The notes under the pieces were generated by a model. That model was not told the DNA's origin. It saw only the letters and a list, made by a program, of their open reading frames with translations, and made no database searches. A DNA stretch of 64,000 nt from Octopus vulgaris (lineage: Eukaryota), in the NCBI GenBank assembly GCA_951406725.2, contig OX597824.1, positions 43,958,001-44,022,000 of the forward strand. Direction: 5' to 3'. A program made the position numbers and the translations under genes. Positions 37,676 to 43,264 of the stretch are shown in pieces (positions within the stretch are counted from its first letter, which is position 1; each line of letters begins with the position of its first letter).

Positions 37676-40658
37676 TTGTAACGATACGAAACTAAATGTA
37701 TTTAGTTTCACATTGTTAAATACCCTGTCACGGATAAAAGGCAGGCAGCTCAGTGGCTAGGGGGAACAGCAGTCAAATAGACAACCAGCCTCTCTGCATT
37801 GCGTTATTGGAGTTCTTGTATGTCACAATCTGATGATAGCAATGGAATCTATTCAAGTAATTTCAGTGCCGCATAGACTGTCTTCTGGAGAACATACCCA
37901 AACTATTATTGCCATCACCACCAGTGTTGTTACTACTGCTCATTCCGTTGTTATTGTTTGTAGCTATAGAAGGAGTGTTGTTGTTACTGCTGCTACTGTT
38001 GTTTGCTGACGAGCTGTGGTTTACACTTGTATAGTTACTGCTGCTGCTATTACTGTCACCAGTATTACTGGTATTTTGGCTATTACTACTTCTGACATTG
38101 CCAGTGTTCTCTTTATCAGGAGACATGACCACAGCTGGATCTGAGATAATGGCAGTTGATAAACGTTTGGATGGTGTTTCTGATGCAGGCCTTGTAGGTT
38201 GCTCACAGCAAATTGTTCTTGTAACATTGGTTGACAAACTCAAATCTACCATCGGCAGTTGTCCTTTCTTCCCAGCCATCAGGAAGTTCATTGGGGTCAT
38301 TTAGTATAACTGGCTGAATAGAAGGTGTGATAATGGTAGCAGGGGCTGAACTATCTTTGTCTCTGGATATAAGGCTTATGATAATCTGCATTTCTTTTCT
38401 GTAATTCCAGCTGTTGAAAGCTAGTATCTTTCAACTGTTGGAAGTGATTTGTACACATCCGAAGAAGCCAGCGCCGTGTTTCTTTTGGATCTTTTTATGG
38501 TTCCAAATACTTATGGTAACAGAATCTTTTTGGCCGATATATAAGTCATAGTGTTGGTTCCACTTAGGATCAAGAGTATTTTTACAAAGTTCTGTTGAGT
38601 GGCACTGCTCTGAACCATTAACATTTATTTTGGCACAAGAATCTGGTAACCTAAAGAAATGTCTTTTAGCTAGGTTCTTAGAACAGAGAACTGTAAATCT
38701 GACTTTCATAGAGCAACTGTGTCCGTTACTAGCCATCGTAGTGGAGAAAATCCATAGAGAACATATCCTTCCTTCCTCACTATAGTATTGCACCTGATGG
38801 GGATCACAGAAAAACCCCTTCTTCAAGCACCATGCTGACTACAAAAGATGCTCCAGAAAATTCAGGGATATGGTTTCAAAATCAAATACTGCCCAATTCA
38901 TACCATGACATTGGCCGACACCCTCTCTTACCTCTCAAACCATGAAGACAACGAAGACATTGACCTGGATTTGAAAGTGGATGGGATTGAATTGACTTCA
39001 AGAGAAATCCACCAATCTGAATTTGACCTTGTCAATTTTTCCATCAACAAACGTTACCAACTGCATGAGTTCACCAGCAGAGATTCTACTTTGGCTACAC
39101 TGATGGAAACGATCACCTAATGGGTGACCGGACAGCATCAAACAACTCTTAGATGACATAAACATACTGGTCTTTTTGAGATGAATTGGTTGTAGAAGAT
39201 TCGAAGGGACACAAGTGTTGATACAAGGGACACAAGTGTTGATACAACATGACATTCTAGTACAGCTTGTAAAGGTGTCTATTGGACAAACATCAACAAA
39301 GACATCGAAGAAATGCAGATCCTGTCAAATATGCCAAGAATTTGCAACTGCCAACAACAAAGAACCACTGATGTCATTCCCAGTGCACCATGAAAAAAAC
39401 TAGGAACAGATCTATTTGAAATCAACAGCAAAACTTATCTGCTCATTTGTGACTACTCCATATTTCCAATTGTATCTCACCTCAGCGAAACCACAAGCAA
39501 AGCAGTCACAGAGGAATTCAAAAAGACTATGTCTCTCTTCAGCAGACCTGATGAAATTTTCAGTGACATTGGTCCTCAATATACCGGAAAACCATTTCAA
39601 CAATTCACAGAAATGGAGAATTCAACACACTACATCATCACCAATCAACTGGATTCATAGAGAGAAGGTACAGATAATTAAAAAGACAATCCAAAAATGT
39701 GAACAAAGCAAAGCAAACATAAACAATGCATTGTTGAATCTAAGAGCCACACCATTTAACTCAAAGATGCCGTCACCTGCTGAGATCCTATTGGGCAACA
39801 CTTGTGCCATTACACTGGAGCTATTGTCATGAAACTCAAAGACAGAGAAGACTTCTTGAAGAAAAGAAAATACAAATGAAAACTGCATATGACCAGCATG
39901 CAAAGATGGAATTACCTCCATTGCACAAAGGACAAGCTATATGAATCCTTGACAAAAACAACAAATGTTGGATACCTGGAGAAAAGCAAGACAATGTAAA
40001 GAACCGAAGTCTTACATTGTGAAAACAATGCATGGAGATTTGCAGAGAAGAGAAACAGAAGAGAACTGAGAGATACTAGCATAGACATAGACAGACAGTA
40101 TGAACAGACCAGTCAGATGGAAACACCTGCCAGATCACCCTACAATATAGAGACAGACAACCATCCAGCAGACCCTACAAACTCTATGGAACATGTTACT
40201 CAACTTGACTCAAGGAAAGAAATTACACATGCTCCTCCTGATAACAACACAGAAACACAAAATAATGGCTAGATGCATGAGAAGTGCTCAATGCCAACCC
40301 CCAGAAGAATCACAAGATTAGGCAGAACAGTGAAAACACCGGAGCACTACAAAAACCATAAAACTGTTCATGTTATTTGAAGTGCATGTTGCGTATTGCT
40401 CTTGCAACAAAACAGTTTTTTTTTTCTTTCTTTGAGGGAGAAGAAACCCTATTTTCATTTGTCAGTTTTATTTGTCTGTGAATTGCTTAAAGAAAAGGTG
40501 GACATTGTAATGATACGAAACTAAATGTACTTAGTTTCACATTGTTAAATACACTGTCGCTGATAAAAGGTGGTCAGCTCAGTGGCTAGGGGAACAGCAG
40601 TCGAATAGACAACCAACCACTCTGCATTGCGTTATTGGACTACTTGTATGGCACAATA
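37676..40658 (+). mobile_element. Ty3/gypsy-type LTR retrotransposon remnant carrying a captured gene fragment
   Basis: ~150-bp direct repeats at 37676-37829 and 40505-40657 (TTGTAA...CACAAT); purine-rich tract aaagaaaaggtgga before the 3' LTR; GAAATTG duplicated on both flanks; pol remnants KPL.QAP..LQKML.KIQGY, LADTLS, ALLNLRATP...SPAEILLG. Confidence 0.88.
37860..38740 (-). pseudogene. SMURF: Processed fragment of SMURF1/2-type HECT E3 ubiquitin ligase (C2 domain + WW1 + low-complexity linker)
   Basis: ATG at 38736; VRFTVLCSKNLAKRHFFRLPD...QCHST...KNTLDPKWNQHYDLYIG..DSVTISIWNHKKI.KK.GAGF.GCV, then frameshifted QLKDTSFQQLEL, QIIISL.SRD and ELPDGWEERTTADGR; no introns. Confidence 0.92.
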
Positions 40659-40876
40659 GAAATTGCTGGCCTTCTGCCTAAATTAGAAACCATTATTATT
40701 GTTATTGATTGGCTGGTTTAATGTTGAGTGAAGTATTGTAAGGGTTGCTAGAACTATCCATTTCATTTATATCTCATCTGCCAGAATAGGAGGGAAAAAA
40801 ACGAACATTAATGATAGTAGTCATTAATGATAATGATAATTACTGATATGATGATGATAATGTTATCTTTTTTCAG

Positions 40877-40939
40877 TTCCTGGAATTATTGGATGTTTAC
40901 AGGCCTTAGAAGTCATTAAAATTGCTTGTGGTTTACAGT
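40877..40939 (+). CDS. MOCS3: MOCS3 exon 8
   Basis: tttcag|TT CCT...CAG T|gtatccttc; (I)PGIIGCLQALEVIKIACGLQ. Confidence 0.94.
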
Positions 40940-41354
40940 GTATCCTTCAAATGACAGCTGATAATTGTATTTTGTCTGATCTATATCAGTATTTGTTTTA
41001 CTTTAGGAGCTATTGACAGTTTGGTAAAGTCTAGAATATGCAAATATTGATACATTTGTTTTATGTCCATTTTTCCATAGTTGCTTGGGTTGATGAATAT
41101 GTTATCTGAGGCATTGTTTTACAGCCAGATGCCCTTCCTGATATGAATCTTTATCTGTTTTTTGAATAAGACATCTCTTATTCCACATGGTTTCAAAGGC
41201 TCGATGTGATTGGATAATTTGTTGACAAGAGAAATTGACATCATACCTACTGCATTGTACAAGCAATCACAAGTGTAAAACACACATGCATATGTGTAAA
41301 TATACAATGGTCATCTTTCAGTTTCTACCTACTGAATCTATTCATACAGAATAT

Positions 41355-41620: not shown

Positions 41621-43264
41621 GTGAAGTATGTTTTTTTTCTGTGCAGTTGCTGTGCTGAAAGAATGTGTGTGGAAAACTAGAATGCAAGGACTCGTGACAG
41701 GATCCTTCATCTCTTGCTCTGGTTTTCTATTAGGTTGTCTCTTTTGGAATTTTTAATTTTGGTTTTAAATGATGTATTTTCAAATTAATTTTCATTAAAT
41801 TACTTTGACTTTATATATCATTTTAAAGCCCATTTTTCGCTCTATCCAATCGTGTTACTCTTTTTCTTTTTGAATAATTAGGTCATTTTTTTTCCAGAAC
41901 GTAGAATACATGGACAAAAAGTAAATTTGCACAATTTTCTTATTCCAGTTCAAGCTAGGCCGAAAAGCTGCTGATACAGCTTGCAATATCAATGATGCAT
42001 TGGTCGAGGAACCACTAATGAACAATGGTAGTTCAAGAAATTTCGTAGTGGTGATAAGAGTCTTGAAGATGATAAGCGTAGTGGTTGGCCATTGGATGTT
42101 GACAATGATCAACTAACAGCCTTAGTTGAAGCTAATCCATGCACAACTGTTCGAGATCTTGCTTCTGAATTAGATGTAACGTATACGACAATTTCCAACC
42201 ACTTGAAAGAGATTGAAAAAGCAAAAATTCTTGAGAAATGGGTGCTGAGAAGAACGGCCCTTTTCTTGACCGGATTGTGACTTGCGATGAAAAGTGGATT
42301 TTCTATGACAACTGGTGACACTCAGTGGTTGGACGCTGACGAAGCCCATGGCACTTCCTGAAGCCAAGGTTGCACCAAAGAAGGTCATGGTGACTGGTGG
42401 TCTGCAACCAGTCTCATCCATCACAGCTGTTTGGATCCAGGCAAAACCATTACGGTAGAGAAGTACTGTCAGCAAATGGATGAAATGCATAAGAAACTCC
42501 GACAACTATCAGTATTGGTCAATACAAAAGGACCAATTCTTCTCCACAACAACGCTTGGCCGCACGTCACACAACTGACTCTGAAGAAGTTGAACAAAAT
42601 GGCCTACAGAACTCTGCCTCATCCACCATACTCACCAGACCTCTCGCCTAACTACTATCACTTTTTCAAGCATCTTGACTACTTCCTGTGTGGGAAATGC
42701 TTCAAAAACCAACACAATGCCAAACATACCTTCAACGACTTCGTCACCACCAGAACACAGGATTTTTATACTACTGGCAAAAATAAACTTGTTTCGCATT
42801 GACAAGTGTGTTGATTCTAATGGTGTTTATTTCGATTAATAAAGTTTTGTTTGAGCCAAGATATGTGCATCTGAATTTAAAGGTTAAAAACCGTAAGAAC
42901 TTTCTTGACAACCTAATACAATACTTCAGATATCATCTGAAGAGCAAGATAACGCTGGAGAAGAGAATCCTGTTGCGAAGTGTGTTTGAGGAAAGATGGA
43001 AGGCTGTGTTAAGAAATGTGGGTGCTAGTAACCCTACTTAATCTGCATTGGGAGAAAAAAAACAAGAGGTAGCTGCTGGGCCTTTTAGGCAACTGGGTAT
43101 AATCCCCTCCCCAAAAGGGAGAAAAAAAAAGACTGTATAATATAAAATTCATCTTTTCATTAAAATTTTCAAATAAGGTTCATTTGAACTCACATTAACT
43201 TCATTTGTATGTGTTGTCCTGTGCTGTATTATCTATATGTGACGTTATTGTCTAAATAAAAAAA
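41620..43264 (+). mobile_element. Tx1/L1-like LINE 3' end interrupted by a mariner
   Basis: The frame AVAVLKECVWKTR...GF|QYFRYHLKSKITLEKRIL...FEERW continues across the mariner; ends in aataaaaaaa; clade assignment tentative. Confidence 0.55.
41730..42916 (+). mobile_element. Decayed mariner transposon
   Basis: TA|TTAGGTTGTC ... GACAACCTAA|TA; IVTCDEKW, HNNAWPH, HPPYSPDLSPNYYH motifs. Confidence 0.9.

Follow-up and report, generated by a model that had tools for sequence, protein, structure and literature searches.

Structure of the locus

The window, by which we mean the whole stretch of 64,000 nucleotides of Octopus vulgaris DNA that was analyzed, carries a MOCS3 gene of 12 exons on the plus strand. 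An LTR element lies between exons 7 (36597..36707, plus strand; approximate ends) and 8 (40876..40950, plus strand; approximate 3′ end), both located by tblastn with Octopus and Argonauta MOCS3; the first-pass annotation had likewise placed it in intron 7. The intron before the element is filled by a very abundant repeat, present as four to five degenerate units, each some 220 bp long (36740-37660 and 40659-40715), and the insertion split the last of these units. A weak match to the Pfam Mos1 transposase HTH domain (E = 0.0009, below the cut-off) is found in MOCS3 intron 8 (41925-42113).

The element is a dead Gypsy LTR element of about 3 kb. A repeat search and the sequence itself gave two direct LTRs 2.83 kb apart, where the first-pass annotation had seen a pair of about 150 bp. 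The 5′ LTR (37674..37830, plus strand) has 157 bp, with limits taken from the repeat search and from the ends of family copies, and the 3′ LTR (40503..40658, plus strand), delimited by comparison with family copies, has 156 bp and has its first two bases changed; 17 of the 156 aligned sites differ between them. The purine tract noted earlier in front of the 3′ LTR was located at 40489..40502 (plus strand) and has the same position in family copies. The flanking duplication exists but has 5 bp instead of the 7 bp first reported, once the LTR ends are fixed from the family: identical copies lie at 37669..37673 and 40659..40663, and the extra TG is the LTR's own on the left and host sequence on the right. 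TG at 37674-75 forms the LTR start in 16 of the 19 other copies whose left end is intact, a comparison that left out two truncated copies and the window's own two LTRs. When the element is removed, the flanks rejoin into a sequence that matches the neighboring host-repeat units.

Genome searches returned at least 30 matches to the LTR and at least 27 to the inner part. Zinc knuckle, RNase H, and integrase zinc and core domains stand in Gypsy order in family copies (by Pfam, with only rve passing the cut-off), while protease and reverse transcriptase (RT) were read by eye from their motifs, two RT pieces and one protease piece having no Pfam match. The direct LTRs, the 5-bp duplication, the tRNA primer site, the purine tract and the order gag-PR-RT-RNase H-integrase are those of Ty3/Gypsy elements. 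The double zinc knuckle and the short LTR presumably reflect a resemblance to the Mag lineage of Gypsy. This lineage is described as frequent in molluscs (PMC6238403).

In the window, the inner part is reduced to a broken remnant (38793..40488, plus strand) that comprises the end of RNase H, the integrase and the 3′ untranslated part. The remnant is 77 to 84% identical to five family copies, has stops in all three frames, and retains an integrase core match (Pfam rve, 39394-39657; E = 1.4e-6, below the cut-off). With the C12 and C13 copies as the reference, SMURF sequence has taken the place of about 2.6 kb that would extend from the primer site to the RNase H end. Inner deletions also vary among the family copies L072, L073, L074 and L047; gag-protease is missing from both the C13 and the C3 copies, the C1 copy lacks RT, and the C21 copy passes from gag straight to RNase H. 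The idea that each family copy carries a different host gene at the place of SMURF was dropped, as the contents were gag-PR or RT remnants with varied deletions. An LTR tree was also set aside as proof of pairing: it places the window's LTRs nearest each other without support, and 16 of its 18 inner branches are open.

A spliced SMURF copy in antisense

The replacing sequence is a spliced SMURF retrocopy (37843..38795, minus strand), identified by genome, protein and Pfam matches and by its exon joins. It is about 0.95 kb long, runs antisense to the element, and includes about 60 nt of the 5′ untranslated region (UTR), the ATG at 38736 and 304 parent codons. The coding span covers exons 1 to 6 and most of exon 7, with C2, WW1 and the Ser/Asn linker and no HECT. 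An antisense SMURF fragment of about 0.9 kb with C2 and WW1 had been proposed from the letters alone, and protein, structure and Pfam matches agree with it: the closest solved structures are SMURF1/2 C2 domains (E = 2e-45), the closest database proteins are Octopus SMURF2-like proteins (83%), and Pfam places C2 above and WW below its cut-off.

The parent gene lies at G000:C6:48.40-48.50 Mb, where seven exons spread over 96 kb match the insert. Its alignment bears out the earlier claim of a spliced-mRNA origin. Six parent introns with GT donors (6/6) and AG acceptors (6/6) are absent from the window copy, whose exon joins lie at 38691/90, 38652/51, 38543/42, 38419/18, 38276/75 and 38191/90. An intronless parent had been named as evidence against capture; the parent has introns, so the capture reading stands. 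The retrocopy ends, on the 3′ side of the mRNA, within exon 7. A poly(A) tract was looked for at the left junction, where the longest A/T run is 3 nt, and none was found.

The retrocopy is 94% identical to the parent coding sequence, and its frame is broken, as had been annotated, by three frameshifting indels (deletions of 10 and 26 nt and an insertion of 1 nt), with a stop after codon 101. Parent exon 7 (L002) lost 15 nt in the Ser/Asn linker after the retrocopy had formed, whereas the retrocopy and the related species organism E keep them. The 15 extra bases are ancestral, as the O. bimaculoides protein has the corresponding residues and the organism E runs show no gap. In the parent SMURF locus (L127), 100 to 220 nt before the ATG, there are three short repeats that each contain ATGCAAAT, which we take to be an octamer-type site.

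Copy number, age and decay

The first-pass annotation had suggested that the chimera might belong to a family that kept transposing, a suggestion that the junction search did not support. The chimera is single copy: among the seven of seven candidates scored for a second SMURF-pol junction, the window alone spans it, and all nine of nine scored matches to SMURF were either the window or one of eight pieces of the parent, with no other SMURF retrocopy in the assembly. Two C16 genome matches to the SMURF insert, considered as further copies, are CAA/CAG simple repeats.

Compared with the parent, the retrocopy differs at 32 of 562 0-fold (5.7%), 12 of 197 2-fold (6.1%) and 7 of 117 4-fold (6.0%) sites, and with an outgroup protein as the reference all 32 0-fold differences lie on the retrocopy side. 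The diagnostic differences in the coding sequence number 51. The similarity of these values indicates an absence of protein constraint and no slowing relative to the LTRs, that is, neutral decay. LTR divergence, which the first-pass annotation had recommended for dating, is 17/312 or 5.4% per lineage, indistinguishable from the 5.7% of the insert (P = 1.0 by Fisher's test). Capture and integration are therefore of one age, within the wide intervals of 3.9 to 7.9% for the insert and 3.2 to 8.6% for the LTRs. The insertion is likely a functionless, neutral fossil.

In organism E, one contig covers the host intron, the LTR and SMURF and differs at 30 of 390 bases, and a second contig aligns without gaps across two exon joins and both deletions. 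The insertion and both deletions therefore predate the split from that species. Two runs that we guess to be RNA gave element-specific contigs at a depth of 2 to 4 and parent-like spliced contigs at 70 to 130 (X9) and above 1,000 (X20), figures that are unstranded and may include DNA carry-over. Several SMURF exon joins also lie within a parent-like contig of run X9. The antisense SMURF RNA that the first-pass annotation expected from MOCS3 transcription is a prediction, as is any effect it might have.

Parent SMURF matches the primer tRNA at the left junction

The 13 nt that follow the 5′ LTR (37831..37843, plus strand) form a now decayed primer-binding site for tRNA-Leu, recognized by its match to family copies and to the tRNA, and SMURF sequence starts at its last base. 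These 13 nt match seven family copies at 6 to 10 positions and the tRNA at 8, with mismatches that are nearly all transitions, whereas they match the parent SMURF at 6 positions with 5 transversions. They belong to the primer site and not to the insert. In all seven family copies examined, the 13-nt primer site is followed by an A-rich leader, and the next five bases of the tRNA are present in none. These five bases (nt 14-18) were read from the genome with a pattern that leaves tRNA positions 59 to 63 open, and 60 of 70 sites found with it show the same five. ARAGORN called three tRNA-Leu genes among 12 loci and one among 4, the intact ones being tRNA-Leu. More than 30 tRNA-Leu 3′-end matches lie about 1 to 2 kb apart at G000:C14:40.77-40.86 Mb, and the one tested is a tRNA-Leu(TAG) gene.

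At the left junction (37843..37848, plus strand), six nucleotides are common to the complement of tRNA-Leu nt 13-18 and to the parent SMURF, and five of the six still match in the window. The antisense strand of the parent equals the complement of tRNA-Leu nt 13-18 at this point and departs from it at the base opposite A58. Five or more matches to the tRNA-Leu complement occur at 1 of 992 parent exon positions, which is the junction itself (0.0009 by composition). The direct exact overlap between element and parent is 1 to 2 nt here in all seven family copies. At the right junction (38793..38799, plus strand), the bases are shared with the element: the parent match runs to 38799 and the family match begins at 38793, so that the SMURF 5′ UTR and the RNase H end overlap imperfectly by 7 nt, in accordance with the join to RNase H and integrase remnants that the first-pass annotation had put near 38800.

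The window agrees with the tRNA at 8 of 13 primer-site and 4 of 5 adjoining positions, a greater loss than the 5 to 6% seen elsewhere. The junction has thus decayed beyond its surroundings, and the 6-nt match therefore rests on the parent sequence. Primer-site nt 6 in the window follows four of the seven family copies and not the tRNA, so that a model in which the tRNA was copied has to suppose either a repair that followed the minus strand or a subsequent change at this base. A variant tRNA-Leu was considered as an explanation of nt 6; 0 of 3 candidate loci were called as tRNA.

Proposed mechanism and alternatives

We consider it probable that plus-strand strong-stop DNA primed on a co-packaged SMURF mRNA, and that the antisense insert arose in one round of reverse transcription. 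Plus-strand synthesis would have proceeded through the LTR, continued for 18 nt on tRNA-Leu and halted before A58. As the family primer site has 13 nt, the last five bases would be unpaired in the element and could pair with SMURF exon 7. RT would then have extended on the mRNA toward its 5′ end, so that the plus strand would receive antisense sequence. Having passed the ATG by about 60 nt, RT would have returned to minus-strand DNA at the RNase H end and finished the 3′ LTR. Integrase would have inserted the product into the repeat in MOCS3 intron 7 in the germ line.

Mis-priming on the mRNA would account for the orientation, the position of the junction, the missing poly(A) and the retention of the 5′ part of the mRNA. 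Retroviral RTs are reported to end strong-stop synthesis after 18 nt, one base before m1A58 (PMC8599865), and for Ty1 and Ty3 the tRNA-bearing first plus strand is described as a dead-end product that accumulates after its displacement (PMC5371799). The junction may be read as fossil evidence of where RT stops on an octopus tRNA. The first-pass annotation had proposed LTR-mediated mRNA capture by template switching. Its first part holds, as the insert is spliced, has no poly(A) and matches the two LTRs in age; ordinary template switching does not fit, as it would give a sense insert. An insert in antisense whose junction lies at the primer site points to the plus-strand step. That the outcome would be sense, unless the template were antisense RNA, is our own reasoning and not a statement of Tan et al.

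An alternative is that an intact element integrated and that SMURF cDNA replaced its inner part later, through break repair or a LINE-type insertion with deletion. We regard this as unlikely. A 6-mer that occurs close to each junction might represent a target duplication of the insert, the age intervals permit a somewhat later event, and inner deletions with later insertions are common among family copies; a shared 6-mer, however, turns up in about 20% of random pairs of segments drawn from the element. The insert also lacks poly(A) and ends inside exon 7, about 2.6 kb were replaced rather than interrupted, and the primer site, not the insert, accounts for the 13 nt that separate the LTR from SMURF. 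With an element-parent overlap of only 1 to 2 nt at the left junction, a later event would leave both the break at the exact end of the primer site and the tRNA match to chance. A later LINE-mediated insertion had been named by the first-pass annotation as the finding that would speak against capture; the missing poly(A), a shared 6-mer at chance level and an insert as old as the LTR pair all weigh against it.

The same junctions and timing would result if the minus strand had switched onto an antisense spliced SMURF RNA, made by an RdRP or from a lost retrocopy, after which strong-stop DNA paired through the same six bases. This route, which we hold to be quite improbable, draws on the published two-switch model (PMC5131818), but it requires an antisense spliced template, and the assembly holds no other SMURF retrocopy. 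We give very little credence to a chimera that is mobile or functional, whether as a nonautonomous family or as an antisense SMURF regulator. Both LTRs and the purine tract are still there, the coding sequence remains 94% identical to the parent, the insertion also occurs in a related species, and SMURF lies antisense within the MOCS3 pre-mRNA; against this stand the single copy, the decayed primer site and the equal divergence at 0-, 2- and 4-fold sites (5.7, 6.1 and 6.0%). Mis-priming of strong-stop DNA on SMURF mRNA is our preferred reading.

Relation to known systems

The octopus copy resembles the LTR-mediated retropositions of Tan et al. (2016; PMC5131818) in that a partial spliced mRNA replaces inner open reading frames while both LTRs are kept, poly(A) is absent, and the site lies within a gene. 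The likeness in short shared bases at the junctions is partial: on the right there is an imperfect 7-nt overlap with the element, on the left 1 to 2 nt with the element but 6 nt with the primer tRNA. In their model, synthesis passes from element RNA to mRNA and back at bases shared by element and mRNA, and shared bases are reported at 25 of 29 junctions (PMC5131818). The octopus copy differs from these in two ways: its left shared bases link the mRNA to a part of the primer tRNA that lies past the primer site, and its insert is antisense. The terms PBS, tRNA and plus-strand are absent from the main text of Tan et al. (PMC5131818). Some of their cases may be antisense too, as their table S8 has an orientation column (PMC5131818), and the junction data of their supplement 1 may include similar cases. 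The standard account of LTR-mediated copying has minus-strand switches that lead to sense inserts; the octopus junction fits another step.

Aberrant plus-strand transfer in retroviral vectors was reportedly described by Dunn, Olsen and Swanstrom in 1992, and the same phenomenon is said to appear in the vector work of Pathak and Temin in 1990 and of Pulsinelli and Temin in 1991. These studies of 1990 to 1992 reportedly found cell-derived or inverted inserts beside a copy of the primer site and ascribed them to strong-stop DNA on a wrong template. The vector products reportedly came from a single round in cultured cells, whereas the octopus case is germ line, integrated, made from a spliced host mRNA and present in two species. 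The dead-end plus strands of Ty1 and Ty3 (PMC5371799) are alike in that the primer site is shorter than the copied tRNA and the strand is displaced; unlike them, the octopus strand appears to have gone on to copy an mRNA and to have been integrated. A processed pseudogene made by a LINE would also have its introns removed and a dead frame, but here the 3′ end of the mRNA and the poly(A) are missing, there is no duplication of the insert's own beyond chance, and the 5′ part is kept.

LTR-mediated retrocopies are already known; what is likely new is a plus-strand step in which the primer tRNA supplies the pairing bases. In the literature searched, which covers subscription and older papers thinly, we found no title or abstract on a plus-strand route for a germ-line host retrocopy, and no host-mRNA case of this route beyond the SMURF locus was found in the genome comparisons made. 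As a tentative extension, mis-priming of tRNA-tailed strong-stop DNA on cellular mRNA might be a second route by which retroposition generally occurs in animals, favored where primer sites are shorter than 18 nt. It would leave a fixed signature of LTR, 18 nt of tRNA, and antisense mRNA with the T-arm hexamer, and host genes placed antisense behind an LTR promoter could readily supply RNA that silences the parent gene. The pattern of LTR, tRNA and antisense mRNA is a precise search target for any genome, and yeast Ty systems offer a way to test it.

A second tRNA-Leu family as an internal comparison

A second LTR family primed by tRNA-Leu, with an 18-nt primer site, gave 30 matches to a search pattern that itself demanded the 18-mer. 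L122, considered as another capture, has no LTR upstream and was dropped, which left 29 LTR-linked matches. In 21 of these the leader follows, and two clusters of near-identical copies account for 14 of the 21. The other eight break directly after nt 18 (on G000, L078 and L126 on C20, L087 on C2, L088 on C3, L090 on C8, L091 on C17, L120 on C4 and L121 on C5).

In four of the eight breaking copies, what follows is the copy's own LTR in inverted orientation, with a match that begins at nt 13 or 14 of the 18-mer, and the other four read through into the tRNA for 13 to 40 nt. L091 and L120 are units of about 300 bp, composed of LTR, primer site and inverted LTR, with perfect 5-bp target duplications. 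L078 jumps after the inverted LTR into protease in sense, a layout like that of the SMURF element; no second LTR was found for L078 and L126 in the approximately 4 and 6 kb examined. These breaks show that a 3′ end at nt 18 mis-primes and that some of the products integrate. They copy their own LTR or the tRNA, with host mRNA in none. Their template may be DNA, and L088 and L091 may be one event.

Several features of these copies stand apart. L087 (1524-1570) contains about 40 nt of further tRNA-Leu complement followed by antisense protease sequence, and it is the one of the four read-through copies with a mismatch opposite A58. In L090 (1524-1900), the start is repeated about 850 bp on without an LTR, and the sequence after the tRNA read-through has a motif that may mark the end of a Tc1/mariner transposase. 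The near-identical short copies of this family are clustered, with ten at G000:C2:14.64-14.74 Mb and four at C27:22.8-23.6 Mb.
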